DNA from: a virus
Length of the DNA: 42,177 nucleotides
Virus genome (UHGV): UHGV-0135963
Direction: 5' to 3' (one strand)
A program made the translations under genes and the position numbers. Below, one piece after another: positions 14,213-38,924 of this stretch; the stretch's first letter is position 1; each line of letters opens with the position of its first letter. The notes under the pieces were generated by a model. That model worked only from the letters and a program-made list of their open reading frames with translations. It did not search any database and was not told the DNA's origin.

Positions 14213-16093
14213 ATGACGCCAAGTGAACTTAGCGACCTGCTTTGGGCGCAGGTTGACAGGGTGGCTCCGCACCTGTTGCCAAACGGCAAGAAAGAGGGGC
14301 ATGAGTGGGTTGCCGGTAACGTCAACGGCGACAAGGGAAACAGCCTTAAGGTCAACCTTAGCGGCAAGAAAAAATGGGCTGATTTCGCTGAGGGAGACGG
14401 CGGTGACATGCTTGATTTGTGGATGGCATGTCGTGGAATTAACCTGCATCAGGCTATGCAGGAAGCGAAAGCATTTCTCGGTATCAAGGATGACGATCAC
14501 CATTTCGATGCCAAACGTGAGAAGAAATTCTCCAGACCTGATCGCAAGAAAATAGCCCGCTACGTTACCAGAACAGAATCCCATCTTGAGTACCTGCAAT
14601 CGCGTGGCATATCGCCAGAAGTCGTAAAGCGCTACGAGGTTGTCAGCGGCAAGGTGTGGAATGGAGAACGAGAACTTGATGCACTGGTGCTCCCGTACAA
14701 ACGCGATGGTGAGTTGTTGCAGGTCAAGCGAATCAGCACTGAGCGCCCGGACGGGAAGAAAGTCATTATGGCAGAAGGTGATTGTGAACCTTGTCTGTTC
14801 GGATGGCAGGCTCTGGACGCTGGCGTGAGGGCGGTTGTGCTTTGCGAAGGCGAAATTGATTGTATGAGCTATGCGCAATACGGCATCTCGGCGTTATCCG
14901 TGCCGTTTGGTGGAGGAAAAGGCGCTAAGCAACAGTGGATTGAGTTTGAGTATCACAACCTCGACAGGTTTGAGGAAATATTCATCTCGATGGACGTTGA
15001 TGATGTTGGTCGTGAAGCCGCAAGGGAAATCGCAAGCCGACTCGGTGAACATCGTTGCCGTCTTGTTACTCTGCCGTACAAAGACATCAACGAATGCCTG
15101 ATGAACGGTGTTACCGAGGATGAAATCTGGCAGTACATCGGCACGGCATCCTACTTCGATCCTGAAGAACTCTACAGCGCGCGAGAGTTTTACCAGGACA
15201 CTATCAACGCTTTCTACGGCAAGCAGCAGTATCTGTTTAATCCACCGTGGGAATCTCTGGCAGATAAATTCCAGTTCCGTGAGGCCGAGTTGACGCTGGT
15301 CAATGGTGTGAACGGTCACGGAAAAACGGAGGTTGTCGGGCATATGGCTCTTGAGGCAATGCGTCAGGGTGTGAAGACGTGCATCGCGTCACTTGAGCTG
15401 AAGCCTGGTATTCTCCTTAAGCGCCTTACCCGTCAGGCGACGTGCTGCAAGATGCCGCCAGTGCTGGAAATTGACTCTGCATTTAAATTTTATGACGAAA
15501 GACTTTGGGTGTTTGGTCTGACCGGAACGGCGAAATCCGACAGGCTGATCGAAATATTCGACTACGCTCGCCGCCGATACGGGATCCAGTTATTCATCAT
15601 CGACAGCCTGATGAAATGTGGCATAGGCGACGATGACTATAACGGGCAGAAGGCGTTTGTTGACTCGATTTGCGACTTCAAAAACAAAACAAACTCCCAC
15701 GTCATTCTCGTTACTCACTCGCGAAAAGGAGACAGCGAAGAAAAACCAACCGGGAAAATGGACGTAAAAGGCTCTGGAGCGATAACAGACCTGACAGACA
15801 ACCTTTTCATCATCTGGCGTAACAAGGCTCGCGAGAGAGCGTTACAGAGAGTTCAGAGTGGTGAAAAGATGTCAGAGAAGGACGAACAGCTACTGGCATC
15901 TCCGGCATCTATTTTGATGCTTGAAAAACAACGTAACGGCGAAGGTTGGGAAGGTGGTGTCCCGTTGTTCCTTGACGAGCAATCGCACCAGTTCCTGCAA
16001 CTTGAATCAGGATCGCCATATAGCTACATCGCCAATATGCCGAAATCGGAATATGACGAGGCGTGGCGACAGGAAAACGTGACGGAGTATTAA
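14213..16093 (+). CDS. Primase-helicase fusion (N-terminal Toprim primase, C-terminal DnaB/RecA-like helicase)
   Basis: 626 aa. Toprim acidic motifs (VVLCEGEIDCMSY...FISMDVDDVGREAA), Walker A (GVNGHGKTEV), Walker B (LFIIDSL). Takes the place of lambda P. Confidence 0.85.
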   Translation: MTPSELSDLLWAQVDRVAPHLLPNGKKEGHEWVAGNVNGDKGNSLKVNLSGKKKWADFAEGDGGDMLDLWMACRGINLHQAMQEAKAFLGIKDDDHHFDAKREKKFSRPDRKKIARYVTRTESHLEYLQSRGISPEVVKRYEVVSGKVWNGERELDALVLPYKRDGELLQVKRISTERPDGKKVIMAEGDCEPCLFGWQALDAGVRAVVLCEGEIDCMSYAQYGISALSVPFGGGKGAKQQWIEFEYHNLDRFEEIFISMDVDDVGREAAREIASRLGEHRCRLVTLPYKDINECLMNGVTEDEIWQYIGTASYFDPEELYSAREFYQDTINAFYGKQQYLFNPPWESLADKFQFREAELTLVNGVNGHGKTEVVGHMALEAMRQGVKTCIASLELKPGILLKRLTRQATCCKMPPVLEIDSAFKFYDERLWVFGLTGTAKSDRLIEIFDYARRRYGIQLFIIDSLMKCGIGDDDYNGQKAFVDSICDFKNKTNSHVILVTHSRKGDSEEKPTGKMDVKGSGAITDLTDNLFIIWRNKARERALQRVQSGEKMSEKDEQLLASPASILMLEKQRNGEGWEGGVPLFLDEQSHQFLQLESGSPYSYIANMPKSEYDEAWRQENVTEY

Positions 16094-16122: not shown

Positions 16123-16155
16123 AGGCCTGCTGGTAATCGCAGGCCTTTTTATTTG
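16123..16155 (+). terminator. Intrinsic terminator after the replication genes
   Basis: aggcctgc tggtaatc gcaggcct followed by ttttatttg: 8-bp GC stem, 8-nt loop, U-run. Confidence 0.65.
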
Positions 16156-16169
16156 GGGGAGAGTAAATC

Positions 16170-16376
16170 GTGGTTGAGTTTATGCTCGTCGCATTCAAAT
16201 GCGTTGGCGTTGGATGGATTCTTCTGACGTTTTTTATTGTTCTGCATAGCTACATTCGTCTTGTGAATGACGGTAAAGACCCATGGTATACGTTGTTTGG
16301 CGCTGCATTTGTCTGGGTGATTATCGGTGTTATGCCTGTCGCTGTAGCAAAAATGGCGTGGCGTTTTTTGAGTTGA
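16170..16376 (+). CDS. Small hydrophobic membrane protein (68 aa)
   Basis: Two predicted TM segments (GWILLTFFIVL, FVWVIIGVMPVAV). GGGGGAGAG RBS. Start codon uncertain (GTG or internal ATG). Confidence 0.4.
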   Translation: MVEFMLVAFKCVGVGWILLTFFIVLHSYIRLVNDGKDPWYTLFGAAFVWVIIGVMPVAVAKMAWRFLS

Positions 16377-16393: not shown

Positions 16394-16714
16394 ATGGACG
16401 AATCAAGAAGGCAGTTTGAAGAAAGTTGGTTGCGACGTGGAGGCGAATCCTCAGACCTTATCCGTTACCCTGAAAATCACCATGAAATTGGCAGTGGTAA
16501 TATTGGTGGTCAATACGTGATGGACGATGTTCAAGGCCACTGGCAAACGTGGCAGGCATCGCGATCAGCTATTGAAATAACCGCGCCAAAGTTTATCGAC
16601 AGCAGAGAAGCATTAGCCAAAGGGTTTACTGTTGATTATTCCAATGGCTTCGGTGATGCAATGGATGCTTATGAGGAAAACATCCGCGCTGCTGGAATCA
16701 AAGTGAAGGAGTGA
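16394..16714 (+). CDS. Hypothetical protein (106 aa)
   Basis: ORF in early-right orientation with coupled stop/start to the next ORF. Confidence 0.5.
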   Translation: MDESRRQFEESWLRRGGESSDLIRYPENHHEIGSGNIGGQYVMDDVQGHWQTWQASRSAIEITAPKFIDSREALAKGFTVDYSNGFGDAMDAYEENIRAAGIKVKE

Positions 16715-16902
16715 GCATGAATCGACGAAGTAGCTTTTTGGGGTTTGTAATATTCCTGTCCTGCACTGGTTACATCGTAATCTGGTCAATTTCGAACATT
16801 GACCGTGGCGGGGAATATCTCATTGTAATGTTCTTTCCTTTGTTTCTTGGGTGGTACGCCGCAAGGTTGCTGGAAGAATGGGGTTACAGGCATAAAAAAT
16901 AA
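16711..16902 (+). CDS. Small membrane protein (63 aa)
   Basis: Two hydrophobic helices (FLGFVIFLSCTGYIVIW, LIVMFFPLFLGWYAA). Confidence 0.4.
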   Translation: MSMNRRSSFLGFVIFLSCTGYIVIWSISNIDRGGEYLIVMFFPLFLGWYAARLLEEWGYRHKK

Positions 16903-16913
16903 AGGAGTGTTCA

Positions 16914-17324
16914 GTGAAGCAAACAATATTCCTCCGAACTAAGCAACAACAGCAAGCCGCAATCAACGCCATCCTCGCAACTCCTCTCGATAAAGACAAG
17001 CCAGTCACCATCCGCATTACTGACTACAAGCGCAACCTTGACCAGAACGCAAAATTTCACGCGATGCTGGCGGATATCGCTTGTCAGGTTCAATGGTGCG
17101 GCAAATGGTTAAAACCAGAGCAATGGAAGGTTTTGTTGATAAGCGGTCATGCAGTGGCAACAAAGCAGGAAGCTGATGTTTTGCCCGGGCTTGAAGGCGA
17201 ATACGTCAACATTCGCGAAAGCAGCGCGCAGATGAGTGTGAAGCGTATGGCAAGTCTGATTGAGTACACGACAGCATGGGCTATTGGTCAGGGTGTCAGA
17301 TTTACCGACAGGAGGTACGAATGA
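16914..17324 (+). CDS. ninB: NinB (Orf-family recombination mediator)
   Basis: 136 aa. [31 protein letters not shown] parallels lambda NinB (SLDQNRKLWACLGDVSRQVEWHGRWLDAESWK). GTG start with AAGGAG RBS. Confidence 0.8.
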
Positions 17325-17503
17325 GACGACAGCGACGAAGTATCACCGACATCATCTGCGAAAACTGCAAATACCTTCCAACGAAACGCTCCAGAAATAA
17401 ACGCAAGCCAATCCCAAAAGAATCTGATGTAAAAACCTTCAACTACACGGCTCACCTGTGGGATATCCGGTGGCTTAGAGAACGTGCGAGGAAAACAAGG
17501 TGA
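17321..17503 (+). CDS. ninE: NinE
   Basis: [60 protein letters not shown] matches lambda NinE as recalled. The ORF track extends upstream to 17276. Confidence 0.75.
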
Positions 17504-17673
17504 TTGACCAAAATCGAAGTTACGAACAAGAAAGCGTCGAGCGAGCTTTAACGTGTGCTAACTGCGGTCAGAAGCTGCATGTGCTGGAAGTTCACGTGTG
17601 TGAGCACTGCTGTGCAGAACTGATGAGCGATCCGAATAGCTCAATGTACGAGGAAGAAGACGATGGTGATTAG
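17500..17673 (+). CDS. ninF: NinF
   Basis: Hand-translated from GTG: [56 protein letters not shown]. Matches lambda NinF as recalled. Confidence 0.7.
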
Positions 17674-18055
17674 CCGATACGGACAAATAACGTTTAAACA
17701 TTTTCAAGACAATCCAACATGGGCTGCTGCGGCTGGATATGACTTTAATTATTTTGATTGTCTGTCAGTCGCATGTATAGCAACTACCAATGTTGCTAAC
17801 AACATAATCGATGAATTCTTGGATTTTCCAGACTATCAGGTCAGAGAGTTGCCTGCATTTTTTGTGAAAGTATCTGTTGCTACAGCTCTGTTATTTATTT
17901 TGTTATTCGCATATCCATTGCTTGCCGTATTTGTTTATGTGAGATGCAAGCACTCACAAAATGAATACAGCGGAGAGCATACCGATATTACCAGCCAAAA
18001 TATGCGAGTGTGGTTGAGGAGATGCCAAGAGAAATGGGGGAGAAGTCATGGCTAA
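17663..18055 (+). CDS. Hypothetical protein with C-terminal TM helix (130 aa), AT-rich nin-region accessory gene
   Basis: Hydrophobic segment VKVSVATALLFILLFAYPLLAVFVYV. AT-rich codon usage. Sits where lambda has ninG. Confidence 0.5.
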   Translation: MVISRYGQITFKHFQDNPTWAAAAGYDFNYFDCLSVACIATTNVANNIIDEFLDFPDYQVRELPAFFVKVSVATALLFILLFAYPLLAVFVYVRCKHSQNEYSGEHTDITSQNMRVWLRRCQEKWGRSHG

Positions 18056-18338
18056 CCTACGCAAAGAAGCGCGCGGAAGAGAATGCCAGGTACGTATTTA
18101 CGGCATATGCAATGGAAATCCTGAAACTACAGTTCTGGCACATTACCGGATGGCTGGAATTTGCGGAACAGGAATGAAACCTGACGACATGATCGGCGCA
18201 TGGGCTTGTAGCGCGTGTCACGATGAAATCGACCGACGCACCCATAATCTCGACAACAAAGACGCCAGACTTTACCACCTCGAAGGCGTGATCAGGACGC
18301 AGTCGATACTGCTGAAGGAGGGGAAGATTAAGCCATGA
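18048..18338 (+). CDS. Cys-rich nin-region protein (DUF1364-like, putative zinc-binding)
   Basis: 96 aa with CQVRIYGICNG...CSACHDEIDRR cysteine pairs. Commonly found just upstream of rusA in lambdoid prophages. Confidence 0.6.
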   Translation: MANLRKEARGRECQVRIYGICNGNPETTVLAHYRMAGICGTGMKPDDMIGAWACSACHDEIDRRTHNLDNKDARLYHLEGVIRTQSILLKEGKIKP

Positions 18339-18697
18339 ACGAATATCAGTTTGTGCTTCCATATCCGCCGTCGCTGAACACCTACTGGCGAAGACGGGGA
18401 AGCCAATACTACATCAGCGATAAAGGCCAGAAATACCGAAAAGACGTTCAGCAAATCATCCGCCAACTCAAGTTAGACATTTTCACCAAATCACGACTCC
18501 GTATCAAAGTCATCGCAGACGTTCCAGACTCCCGCCGCCGCGACCTCGACAACATCCTGAAAGGTTTACTCGACTCCCTTATCCACGCCGGATTTGCGGA
18601 AGACGACGAGCAATTCGATGACATTCGCGTAATTCGTGGCGTGAAAGTACCAGGCGGAAGGCTTGGAATAAAAATCACCGAACTGGAGAACGTATGA
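18335..18697 (+). CDS. rusA: RusA Holliday-junction resolvase
   Basis: 120 aa. LPYPPSLNTYWRRRG...DSRRRDLDNILKGLLDSLIHAGF...RGVKVPGGRLGIKITELENV parallels E. coli RusA including the catalytic D-x-D-N region. Confidence 0.85.
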   Translation: MNEYQFVLPYPPSLNTYWRRRGSQYYISDKGQKYRKDVQQIIRQLKLDIFTKSRLRIKVIADVPDSRRRDLDNILKGLLDSLIHAGFAEDDEQFDDIRVIRGVKVPGGRLGIKITELENV

Positions 18698-18882
18698 ACG
18701 CCACAATTCAAACGATACCAGAGCTTCTTATCCAGACACGAGGCAATCAGACCGAAGTGGCGAGGATGCTTTCCTGCGCAAGAGGAACAGTGCTCAAGTA
18801 CAACCGAGACAGCAAAGGCGAGCGTCACGTAATAGTTAACGGCGTCCTGATGGTCACGCCAGGCAAAAAGGGAAGACGATGA
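18694..18882 (+). CDS. ninH: NinH
   Basis: IQTIPELLIQTRGNQTEVARMLSCARGTVLKYNRD parallels lambda NinH (KTIPDMLVEAYGNQTEVARRLKCSRGTVRKYVDD). Confidence 0.75.
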   Translation: MNATIQTIPELLIQTRGNQTEVARMLSCARGTVLKYNRDSKGERHVIVNGVLMVTPGKKGRR

Positions 18883-19502
18883 GACTCGAAAGCGTAGCTA
18901 AATTTCACTCGCCAAAAAGCCCGATGATGAGCGACTCACCACGGGCTACGGCTTCTGACTCTCTTTCCGGTACTGATGTGATGGCTGCTATGGGGATGGC
19001 GCAATCACAAGCCGGATTCGGAATGGCTGCATTCTGTGGTAAGCACGAACTCAGCCAGAACGACAAACAAAAGGCTATCAACTATCTGATGCAATTTGCA
19101 CACAAGGTATCGGGGAAATACCGTGGTGTGGCAAAGCTTGAAGGAAATACTAAGGCAAAGGTACTGCAAGTGCTCGCAACATTCGCTTATGCGGATTATT
19201 GCCGTAGTGCCGCGACGCCGGGCGCAAGATGCAGAGATTGTCACGGTACAGGCCGTGCGGTTGATATAGCCAAAACGGAGCAGTGGGGGAGAGTTGTTGA
19301 GAAAGAGTGCGGAAGATGCAAAGGCGTCGGCTATTCCAGGATGCCAGCAAGCGCCGCATATCGCGCTGTAACGATGCTAATCCCAAACCTTACTCAACCC
19401 ACCTGGTCACGCACTGTTAAGCCGCTGTATGACGCTCTGGTGGTGCAATGCCACAAAGAAGAGTCAATCGCAGACAACATTTTGAATGCGGTCACACGTT
19501 AG
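18879..19502 (+). CDS. Q: Late-gene antiterminator Q (lambda type)
   Basis: 207 aa, essentially identical to lambda Q as recalled (MRLESVAKFHSPKSPMMSDSPRATASDSLSGTDVMAAMGMAQSQAGF...). Confidence 0.92.
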   Translation: MRLESVAKFHSPKSPMMSDSPRATASDSLSGTDVMAAMGMAQSQAGFGMAAFCGKHELSQNDKQKAINYLMQFAHKVSGKYRGVAKLEGNTKAKVLQVLATFAYADYCRSAATPGARCRDCHGTGRAVDIAKTEQWGRVVEKECGRCKGVGYSRMPASAAYRAVTMLIPNLTQPTWSRTVKPLYDALVVQCHKEESIADNILNAVTR

Positions 19503-20174: not shown

Positions 20175-20498
20175 ATGAAGATGCCAGAAAAACATGACCT
20201 GTTAGCCGCCATTCTCGCGGCAAAGGAACAAGGCATCGGGGCAATCCTTGCGTTTGCAATGGCGTACCTTCGCGGCAGATATAATGGCGGTGCGTTTACA
20301 AAAACAGTAATCGACGCAACGATGTGCGCCATTATCGCCTGGTTCATTCGTGACCTTCTCGACTTCGCCGGACTAAGTAGCAATCTCGCTTATATAACGA
20401 GCGTGTTCATCGGCTACATCGGTACTGACTCGATTGGTTCGCTTATCAAACGCTTCGCTGCTAAAAAAGCCGGAGTAGAAGATGGTGGAAATCAATAA
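20175..20498 (+). CDS. S: Holin S (class I, dual start)
   Basis: 107 aa [35 protein letters not shown]... matches lambda S. Met1-Lys2-Met3 dual-start motif. Confidence 0.95.
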
Positions 20499-20958
20499 TC
20501 AACGTAAGGCGTTCCTCGATATGCTGGCGTGGTCAGAGGGAACTGATAATGGACGTCAGAAAACCAGAAATCATGGTTATGACGTCATTGTTGGCGGAGA
20601 GCTATTCACTGATTACTCCGATCACCCTCGCAAACTTGTCACGCTAAACCCCAAACTCAAATCAACAGCCGCCGGACGCTACCAGCTTCTTTCCCGTTGG
20701 TGGGATGCCTATCGTAAGCAGCTTGGCCTGAAAGACTTCTCTCCGAAAAGCCAGGATGCTGTGGCATTGCAACAGATTAAAGAGCGTGGCGCTTTGCCGA
20801 TGATTGATCGTGGTGATATTCGTCAGGCAATTGACCGTTGCAGCAATATCTGGGCTTCACTGCCGGGCGCTGGTTATGGTCAGTTCGAGCATAAGGCTGA
20901 CAGCCTGATTGCAAAATTCAAAGAGGCTGGCGGAACGGTCAGAGAGATTGAGGTATGA
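20482..20958 (+). CDS. R: Endolysin R (lytic transglycosylase)
   Basis: 158 aa [51 protein letters not shown]... matches lambda R. Confidence 0.95.
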
Positions 20959-21392
20959 GCAGAGTCACCGCGATTATCTCCGCTCTGGTTATCTGCATCA
21001 TCGTCTGCCTGTCATGGGCTGTTAATCATTACCGTGATAACGCCATGACCTACAAAGAGCAGCGCGATAAAGCCACATCCATCATCGCTGATATGCAGAA
21101 GCGTCAACGTGATGTAGCAGAACTCGACGCCAGATACACAAAGGAGCTTGCTGATGCTAACGCGACTATCGAAAGCCTCCGTGCTGATGTTTCTGCTGGT
21201 CGTAAGCGCCTGCAAGTCGCCGCCACCTGTGCAAAGCCAACGACCGGAGCCAGCAGCATGGGCGATGGAGAAAGCCCAAGACTTACAGCAGATGCTGAAC
21301 TCAATTATTACCGTCTCAGAAGTGGAATCGATAGGATAACCGCGCAGGTTAACTACCTGCAGGAATACATCAGGACTCAGTGCCTGAAATAA
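20955..21392 (+). CDS. Rz: Rz inner-membrane spanin
   Basis: 145 aa. N-terminal TM ([18 protein letters not shown]), coiled coil, lambda-Rz-like N-terminus. Confidence 0.9.
21148..21339 (+). CDS. Rz1: Rz1 outer-membrane lipoprotein spanin, embedded in +1 frame of Rz
   Basis: Lipobox LLVVSAC followed by a Pro-rich stretch ([13 protein letters not shown]). Fully nested within Rz. Confidence 0.8.
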
Positions 21393-38661: not shown

Positions 38662-38861
38662 GTAAAGAATGTTGTTTCTGCGGCATTAGCGAATCAGACG
38701 CTGATCAAACATACATTTACTCTAAAGAAACAGGTCGGATGCTGTGTAGTGACTGCGTGTTGGACATCATAAGATACAAGCATCTTGGATGTTCTGCCAG
38801 CATTAGCAATATAGGTGAAGTATATGAAGGGAAAGATATAACTGATAGAGCAGAAAGTTGA
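38658..38861 (+). CDS. Small Cys-rich protein (67 aa, CxxC...CxxC zinc-ribbon-like)
   Basis: CCFCG...CSDC motifs. Start overlaps arc stop (ATGA). Confidence 0.45.
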   Translation: MSKECCFCGISESDADQTYIYSKETGRMLCSDCVLDIIRYKHLGCSASISNIGEVYEGKDITDRAES

Positions 38862-38924
38862 AGCCCCAACTGCGGCAACAGTCAGGGCTTCGGTATCGTA
38901 AAACCACGCATAGGAATTAACGAC

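Follow-up and report, generated by a model that had tools for sequence, protein, structure and literature searches.

The locus between ninF and the recombination-nuclease genes of the virus genome UHGV-0135963 raises a simple question: what is the open reading frame (ORF) that lies there, and what would a predicted membrane protein do in such a place? The sequence analysed is the whole stretch of 42,177 nucleotides (nt), hereafter the window, and the ORF at 17663..18055 on the plus strand, which starts with ATG and encodes 130 amino acids (aa), is referred to as gene X. A first-pass annotation made from the letters of the sequence had described it as an AT-rich membrane-protein gene inserted in the nin region in place of ninG. 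Our results show that X is a genuine conserved phage gene whose small product, of unknown function, crosses the membrane once. It is a phage-only accessory gene, one of the interchangeable small-gene cassettes found between ninF and a recombination-nuclease gene; we put at about 55% the probability of the overall reading given below, which adds an envelope-directed role to this. It is an ordinary kind of nin-region accessory cassette, in a catalogued but uncharacterised family.

That X is a gene is supported by the ORF listing, a profile match, homologues and purifying selection. The ORF was found again at the place described, between ninF and a DUF1364-like/rusA pair, with the neighbours identified by Pfam. 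The encoded protein matches PHROG 2638 (function unknown) with E=6.8e-55 and 185.6 bits, X residues 9-127 aligning to profile positions 2-120 of 120. It is a member of this group with no sequence difference to set it apart, and the group has no assigned function, structure or literature; no paper mentioning PHROG 2638 was found, and a literature search on a membrane protein in the nin region gave nothing specific. A single-sequence search returned 12 homologues at 38-97% identity, a profile search yielded 126 cluster representatives of similar lengths, all called 'hypothetical', and IMG/VR contributed 159 relatives. When 1.84 billion representatives were searched with a hidden Markov model, only 45 were found at 50% clustering, all 58-131 aa long and without fused domains, four weak matches to longer, apparently repetitive proteins excepted. 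The family is evidently small and compact, and because no fused domains occur among these representatives, X is best described as a stand-alone effector.

Conservation within the family is strong. In an alignment of 117 sequences, F14, G25, Y26, F28 and D32 are invariant and fourteen residues reach at least 90%. Comparison of X with homologues about 50% identical to it gave a nonsynonymous rate (dN) of 0.35-0.5 and a saturated synonymous rate (dS), and to judge by such comparisons the gene is under purifying selection. A Shine-Dalgarno core precedes 40 of the 50 distinct homologue starts, the exceptions falling mainly in the P1-like group, and in the window a Shine-Dalgarno-like GAGGA (17650..17654, plus strand) stands 9 nt 5' of the X ATG, within the ninF coding sequence. 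Conservation in relatives and translation signals, the two things whose lack would have spoken against the ORF, are thus clearly present, and its early description as a genuine membrane-protein gene is borne out by the family conservation together with the transmembrane (TM) segment.

The family is confined to phages of one bacterial order as far as hosts are named. At a nucleotide identity of at least 95%, X was found in 37 of 5426 complete Escherichia coli genomes, in all cases on the chromosome and including enteropathogenic E. coli (EPEC) E2348/69, and a close version is also present in Klebsiella phage phiKp_30. The exact protein is recorded from E. coli and its 90% cluster takes in Salmonella. 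Relatives with 30-57% identity reside in prophages of Buttiauxella, Enterobacter, Klebsiella, Citrobacter, Yersinia, Serratia, Rahnella, Pantoea, Pectobacterium, Xenorhabdus, Providencia and Morganella. Others occur in the P1-like phages RCS47 and SJ46, in Yersinia phage vB_YenS-P840, in Proteus Gorganvirus phages, and in 258 plasmid records from Escherichia, Salmonella and Shigella, almost all of them non-mobilizable and 80-115 kb long, which is the size of P1-like phage-plasmids. A scan of genome contigs yielded only 8 loci. All named hosts belong to the Enterobacterales, the carriers are of podovirus, siphovirus and myovirus types and differ in their replication modules, and no copy outside a phage context was seen among the loci examined. 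The homologues run in the same direction as the early, replication, recombination or methylase genes around them, with which they are tightly packed.

Individual copies of X show some further features. The IMG/VR contig L019 (IMGVR_UViG_2737471818_000002) carries an identical X with the same X-flanking junction sequences. The E2348/69 region (L001, NC_011601.1 732389-740781) is decayed around an intact X: ninF is present twice, the two copies being separated by an HNH fragment, rusA has an internal stop, the antiterminator is truncated, and lpxR (lipid A deacylase) is inserted on the opposite strand. Three IMG/VR prophage copies with 95-97% identity have premature stops in the C-tail of X, at codon 112 in L036 and L037 and at codon 121 in L041, with the N-domain and the TM helix intact in all three. 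Two homologues bear database names, 'conotoxin' (L009 3998-4357, OQ716682.1 ORF53) and 'ribonucleotide reductase large subunit' (Proteus phage VB_PmiS-Isfahan, YP_009600589.1), both of them evident misnomers, since the proteins are membrane proteins of about 120 aa.

The position of X is defined by overlapping codons on both sides. Directly upstream lies ninF (17500..17673, plus strand; Pfam NinF E=1.7e-12; 98% aa identity to lambda NinF by tblastn), and directly downstream, at the ninG position, ybcO/DUF1364 (18048..18338, plus strand; Pfam YbcO E=2.2e-44). The ATG of X at 17663 falls within the 3' end of ninF, in the string GACGATGGTGATTAG, and the left junction (17663..17673, plus strand) consists of the X start ATGGTGATTAG laid over the ninF stop (TAG 17671-17673), an overlap of 11 nt that agrees with the start/stop overlap noticed earlier. 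This overlap suggests that translation of X could be coupled with that of ninF. The 3' end of X, CATGGCTAA (CAT GGC TAA), includes the ATG start codon (18048) of the gene that follows, and at this right junction ATGGCTAA (18048..18055, plus strand) the X stop overlaps the ybcO start by 8 nt. Written out, the ninF/X junction is GAAGACGATGGTGATTAG and the X/ybcO junction GTCATGGCTAACCTACGC.

The same joint is used elsewhere. The lambda ninF-ninG joint reads GAAGATGATGGCTAAACCAGCG, in which ATGGCTAA unites the ninF stop with the ninG start, and the X/ninG junction of locus L002, GTCATGGCTAAACCAGCG, contains the same octamer. If 17667-18051, a segment of 385 nt lying between two ATGG tetramers, is removed from the sequence, a ninF-ATGGCTAA-nuclease joint of the lambda type results, and lambda represents the empty state of the ninF|ninG site. 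A synthetic empty-site query recovered 310 E. coli genomes with both flanks; an empty ninF|ybcO site was present in none of the 25 best of these 310 matches, where X or a different cassette filled the slot in every case, with flank spans of 621, 635, 685 or 801 nt, the last being consistent with X. The other occupants encode proteins of 70 aa (PHROG 3973), 72 aa (PHROG 3379, labelled 'endonuclease') and 89 aa (PHROG 1258), their identity being judged from one example each (L100, L101 and L102). These cassettes are unrelated to X, lie between near-identical ninF and ybcO genes and have effectively unknown functions; they begin with ATGAGTGATT over the ninF stop and end at or beside ATGGCTAA.

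To judge from these junctions, the boundary between ninF and the nuclease gene is a precise slot for cassettes: its ATGGCTAA joint of stop and start codon is conserved, and at least four different genes occupy it in one genome or another. Because diverged X loci, down to about 36-50% aa identity, retain ATGGCT(A/G)A where X meets the nuclease gene, X has apparently long resided in a defined site of exchange and is not a recent random insertion. The nin region as a site of accessory genes, which the first-pass annotation had pointed out, is upheld by the unrelated genes that share the slot of X. Conserved boundary sequences reportedly mediate module exchange (Clark et al. 2001), an idea with which this slot is in keeping, and a literature search on the HK620 'linker sequence' idea returned nothing. 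The slot picture agrees with a nin gene pool of 30-50 dispensable genes, about ten of which are present per phage (PMC5630979). In a census of 96 related loci the gene following X was NinG in about 24, YbcO (with or without RusA) in about 24, a P1-specific protein in 24 and varied in the rest; no partner gene was common to all contexts. The PHROG 1258 protein (89-97 aa) takes the place of X in the lambdoid slot (L101 1704-1973), stands directly upstream of X in P1-like phages (L008 3698-3991) and is found two genes downstream of it in L005 (6399-6692).

The proposal that X is there in place of ninG does not hold. Other E. coli prophages have X, at 98-99% nucleotide identity, with ninF on one side and a full-length ninG on the other, an intact NinG follows it in L002, L007 and about 24 of the 96 loci, and the two are not mutually exclusive. 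In the window, the position and role of ninG are filled by YbcO/DUF1364 plus RusA. X resembles lambda ninG/rap in its operon position class, between ninF and ninH/Q with overlapping stop and start codons, and in using the ATGGCTAA junction that links lambda ninF to ninG. Unlike NinG, a soluble His-Me finger nuclease, X is a predicted membrane protein, and it shows neither sequence similarity to NinG nor a match to PF05766: no Pfam match to X was better than E=0.17, and tblastn against lambda ninG gave nothing. The absence of similarity to lambda nin genes, also stated at the outset, was confirmed against the lambda nin region, where the best tblastn match had E=1.1.

The AT-richness is real, the guanine-cytosine (GC) content of X being 39.7% against 47.0% for the window. 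Plotted in steps of 200 nt, GC is 0.375-0.38 at 17700-18000 against 0.47-0.53 on both sides, and this copy of X lies 9.4 points below its flanks. Its GC minimum, 33%, coincides with the TM segment, whose F/I/L/V/Y codons are AT-rich. X was below its flanks in GC in 93% of the 96 loci, with a mean gap of 5.4 points; low GC is a trait of the family.

The protein consists of an acidic N-domain, one TM helix and a basic tail. The N-terminal domain (codons 1-64, 17663..17854, plus strand) bears the motif H13 F14 D16 P18 W20-AAAAGYDFN29 D32 C33. The single TM helix (codons 65-94, 17855..17944, plus strand) is indicated by the Kyte-Doolittle scale, the Hessa scale and the alignment. The Kyte-Doolittle maximum over 19 residues is 2.61 at residues 75-93, the Hessa-scale sum for the same residues is -1.87, predicting insertion, against +8.3 for the next best segment, and alignment columns 70-93 are nearly charge-free over the 117 sequences. 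At the N-edge of the helix, columns 66 and 69 hold K or R in 15-18% of members, including K69 in the window copy. A mid-helix W-P is conserved and is Y-P in the window copy. The C-terminal tail (codons 95-130, 17945..18052, plus strand) is basic and contains an amphipathic helix, with C95, Y102, N113 and W117 conserved in the tail; the consensus C-helix has a hydrophobic moment of 0.65, compared with 0.28 for shuffled sequences. The strong hydrophobic helix originally reported therefore exists, with its position corrected from C-terminal to mid-to-C-terminal (about 65-94), followed by a basic tail of 36 aa. AlphaFold2, run on the 117-sequence alignment, returned a model with a predicted local distance difference test score (pLDDT) of 88 and a predicted template modelling score (pTM) of 0.71, comprising a beta-hairpin at 2-9, helices at 11-16, 18-23 and 30-53, a long helix at 60-101 and a last helix at 108-128, with GYDFN in a loop. 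The helices on either side of the TM helix are amphipathic.

Which of these parts matters most can be read from the distant members of the family. They keep F14, P18, G25, Y26, D-C (32-33), the VRELP motif before the helix and PF.FW.WG within it, and lose H13, C95 and most of the C-tail. This suggests that the conserved core is the N-domain plus a sequence-specific helix, which would form a binding module at or in the membrane and not an enzyme or a simple anchor. The helix is probably more than an anchor because conservation inside it (W-P, PF.FW.WG) lasts into the most distant members. Two further candidates were rejected. A metal site or catalytic triad of H13, D16, D32, C33 and C95 fails on H13 and C95, which distant members do not share, and what these members do retain (F14, P18, G25, Y26) looks structural. 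A second TM helix at 31-49 has a Hessa sum of +8.3 and conserved charged residues inside.

It is very probable that X inserts in the inner membrane, and the orientation is a closer call. The mean net charge over the family is -3.3 for the N-domain and +6.6 for the C-tail. The consensus flank on the N side of the helix, PDTEVRELP, is acidic and the one on the C side, RCKRxRRKY, strongly basic; K plus R per 12-residue flank averages 1.26 on the N side against 3.8 on the C side, the C side being richer in 92% of members. By the positive-inside rule, we lean towards a cytoplasmic C-tail and a periplasmic N-domain (N-out/C-in). This orientation has two points against it: a 64-aa N-tail with about five K/R residues would have to be translocated without a signal peptide, which is possible but not typical, and the hydrophobic stretch of 29 residues with a central proline could be re-entrant. 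A re-entrant hairpin with both ends cytoplasmic is accordingly a serious second choice that we consider somewhat improbable.

Searches for known families and folds returned little. With X as the query, Pfam gave only Kinocilin at E=0.17, NCBIfam only ATP synthase c at E=0.014, far below its cutoff, and a sequence-profile search of the PDB nothing better than E=0.12. PADLOC-DB had no family at E<=10, its models covering defence and not anti-defence proteins. Pfam run on the 117 members produced only sub-threshold TM-type matches (LapA_dom, KleE and CptA toxin, the best about 1e-3); these fall on largely TM proteins, are confined to the TM segment, and are absent from the window copy at E<=0.1. 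Foldseek with the AlphaFold2 model found one unnamed 109-aa viral protein in BFVD (E=2.4e-3) and nothing else there, and in the PDB all matches had E>1; the fold-search matches are generic helical hairpins only. The superinfection-exclusion families Imm, Sp, SieA, HK97 gp15 and Cor/Llp gave no Pfam, PHROG, NCBIfam, PDB or BFVD-fold match, and no holin-family profile in Pfam or PHROG matched X.

X is probably an early gene. A consensus scan for sigma-70-like promoters found none on the plus strand between 16000 and 19544, and a scan for terminator-like hairpins found none flanking X; the closest terminator-like sites on the plus strand precede the nin genes, at 16123-16358. With neither promoter nor terminator of its own, and overlapping its neighbours on both sides, X is most likely read as part of the rightward delayed-early transcript. 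In all probability it would be transcribed with the nin genes in this operon and translationally coupled to both ninF and ybcO. That the promoter scan was limited to sigma-70 consensus sites tells against this picture.

We hypothesize that X works at the envelope during lytic growth. Its conserved N-domain and helix would bind some component of the envelope or inner membrane that is conserved in Enterobacterales, and this binding would act in phage-phage or phage-host conflict. In lambdoid and P22-like phages the nuclease gene beside the slot is ninG or ybcO-rusA; in P1-like phage-plasmids and in siphoviruses of Yersinia and Proteus, relatives of X are located in early or DNA-metabolism regions. 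T4 Imm and Sp are small stand-alone inner-membrane proteins, products of early genes and dispensable for growth. They are the favoured functional analogy for X, with no sequence, profile or fold relationship detected. By this analogy we tentatively assign X to envelope-directed conflict, most plausibly as an early-expressed protein for exclusion or envelope protection in the manner of Imm and Sp. It is likewise conceivable, though short of probable, that X founds a phage-only bitopic inner-membrane family, widespread in lambdoid and P22-like prophages and in hundreds of P1-like phage-plasmids, with no detectable fold relatives and an undescribed early-lytic mechanism of exclusion or counter-defence, in which an N-domain with the motif …HF.D.P.WAAAGY.FN..DC… and a sequence-specific TM helix bind a conserved host envelope component.

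Several observations count against assigning such a function. No homologue has been characterised, the database names being all 'hypothetical' apart from the two mis-annotations. The exclusion idea is drawn only from architecture and context, and the generic hairpins from the fold searches add nothing specific to it. Known proteins for exclusion mostly depend on a single route of entry; X, unlike Imm and Sp, occurs in phages with very different entry machines. The premature C-tail stops in three prophage copies indicate that X can be lost.

Other explanations of the locus concern either its origin or its function. A spurious ORF, left open by chance in an AT-rich non-coding spacer, is next to inconceivable: beyond the missing annotation names nothing favours it, and it is contradicted by the full-length family, the invariant residues, the purifying selection and the conserved ribosome-binding sites. 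More can be said for a foreign, AT-rich, moron-like gene of lysogenic conversion that was recently inserted in place of ninG. Morons of lambdoid phages, in the sense of Juhala and Hendrix, are extra genes with deviant base composition and their own promoter and terminator. X is like them in being present or absent between near-identical neighbours and in its GC deficit of about 9 points, the position is known to be variable, and among the complete E. coli genomes no more than the 37 mentioned above have the close version. Unlike morons, X lacks its own promoter and terminator in the consensus scan and shares codons with the genes on both sides, and its position is filled by alternative genes, not by an empty site, in the 25 best of 310 relatives. 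Moreover, X co-exists with intact ninG, YbcO and RusA fill the ninG role, the junction is kept in diverged homologues, and the low GC recurs in 93% of the 96 loci, all of which makes a recent insertion of this kind very unlikely.

The functional alternatives are harder to separate from the exclusion idea. X could be a counter-defence protein that, as T4 rII counters RexAB, neutralises a membrane-associated abortive-infection or other defence effector of the host, or that otherwise guards the membrane of the infected cell from defence-triggered collapse. Its location, a hypervariable slot for accessory genes within the early region, and its inferred early expression would suit this, as would the anti-restriction genes common nearby (Lar and Dam/N6-methyltransferases in L002, L005 and L009) and the conservation within the helix, which fits binding to another membrane protein. 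Methylases occur in nin regions regardless of X, though, and no PADLOC match was obtained, a weak objection since PADLOC models defence proteins; we regard counter-defence as unlikely but worth keeping in mind. A host take-over or lysis-timing factor, which would perturb the membrane, the division machinery or holin triggering, has its comparators in SPO1 gp56, Kil-type division inhibitors and antiholins. X has a generic holin-compatible look (small, one TM helix, highly charged C-terminus), some members gave the LapA_dom, KleE and CptA toxin matches, and nonsense-truncated prophage copies would be expected if leaky expression were costly. These matches are sub-threshold and limited to the TM segment, however, a complete set of holin, presumed endolysin and Rz is present at 20175-21392 with X outside this lysis cassette, and a strongly conserved soluble domain of 55 aa is unexpected in a simple membrane-damaging peptide, which leaves this role improbable. 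Slightly less credit is given to a membrane tether for phage replication or recombination that would work with NinG or YbcO-RusA in the manner of phi29 p16.7, a membrane organiser of phage DNA replication with an N-terminal TM helix and a C-terminal DNA-binding domain. Like p16.7, X has about 130 aa and a single TM helix, is a phage protein of probable early expression and has its gene among those for replication; it lies directly upstream of NinG or YbcO with the conserved overlapping junction in about half of the 96 loci, elsewhere among helicase, exonuclease, primase, RdgC and Dam genes, and its basic amphipathic C-tail could bind DNA. Unlike p16.7, its TM helix is central and its conserved N-domain acidic, and no sequence or fold match connects the two. 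Unrelated small soluble proteins occupy the same slot beside the same nucleases, no single partner gene is kept across contexts, P1-like copies have no NinG or YbcO neighbour, and the C-tail is the least conserved part of the protein and is short in distant members.

The remaining neighbours of X in the window follow the nin order. Pfam identified NinB (16914-17324) and NinE (17276-17503) upstream. Downstream of ybcO comes rusA (18335..18697, plus strand; Pfam RusA E=2.4e-16); RusA is a Holliday-junction resolvase, in agreement with the Pfam name. It is followed by NinH (18694-18882) and Q (18879-19502), which is 99.5% identical to lambda Q. YbcO/DUF1364 and NinG have both been classed as His-Me finger nucleases, and the usual neighbours of YbcO are RusA and Q (PMC5714182). 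The lysis genes at 20175-21392, about 2 kb downstream of X and past Q and two tRNAs, comprise Phage_holin_3_1, a 158-aa ORF presumed to be the endolysin without a Pfam match, and Rz.

Upstream of ninB, two hydrophobic ORFs were noted on the plus strand, one of 68 aa (PHROG 1165, 16170-16376) and one of 63 aa without a family match (16711-16902). Each appears to hold two hydrophobic stretches and, counting X, the nin region of the window may encode three small membrane proteins. Between them lies a 106-aa ORF (16394-16714, plus strand) of PHROG 343 (function unknown), which resembles the gene that directly precedes the homologue of X in Proteus phage PM-CJR (L010 3724-4014), the pattern RQQFE…W..WQASR…GIKVK being common to both by eye. 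Farther upstream, downstream of an O-like gene, a 626-aa fusion of Toprim and DnaB-like primase-helicase (14213-16093, plus strand) is encoded, which is not a lambda P-type loader, and a terminator-like hairpin (16123-16146) follows this gene. Rfam identified sar RNA, the antisense regulator of the P22 immI/ant region, at 38856-38923 on the minus strand (83.6 bits) and no family overlapping the X region. The sar RNA and the sizes of the ORFs beyond the lysis genes suggest that the phage of the window is P22-like, with an early right arm that is partly lambda-like.

Our analysis corrects the annotation of this locus in two respects: X is not a substitute for ninG, and the names given to two of its homologues are wrong. 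The X family is clean, compact and restricted to phages, and with a confident AlphaFold2 model and no known fold or function it is a tractable target. Many E. coli and Salmonella prophages of clinical relevance carry it, as do P1-like phage-plasmids. The slot in which X resides provides a tidy example of the mosaic building of lambdoid phages and is a place in which to seek genes of conflict.

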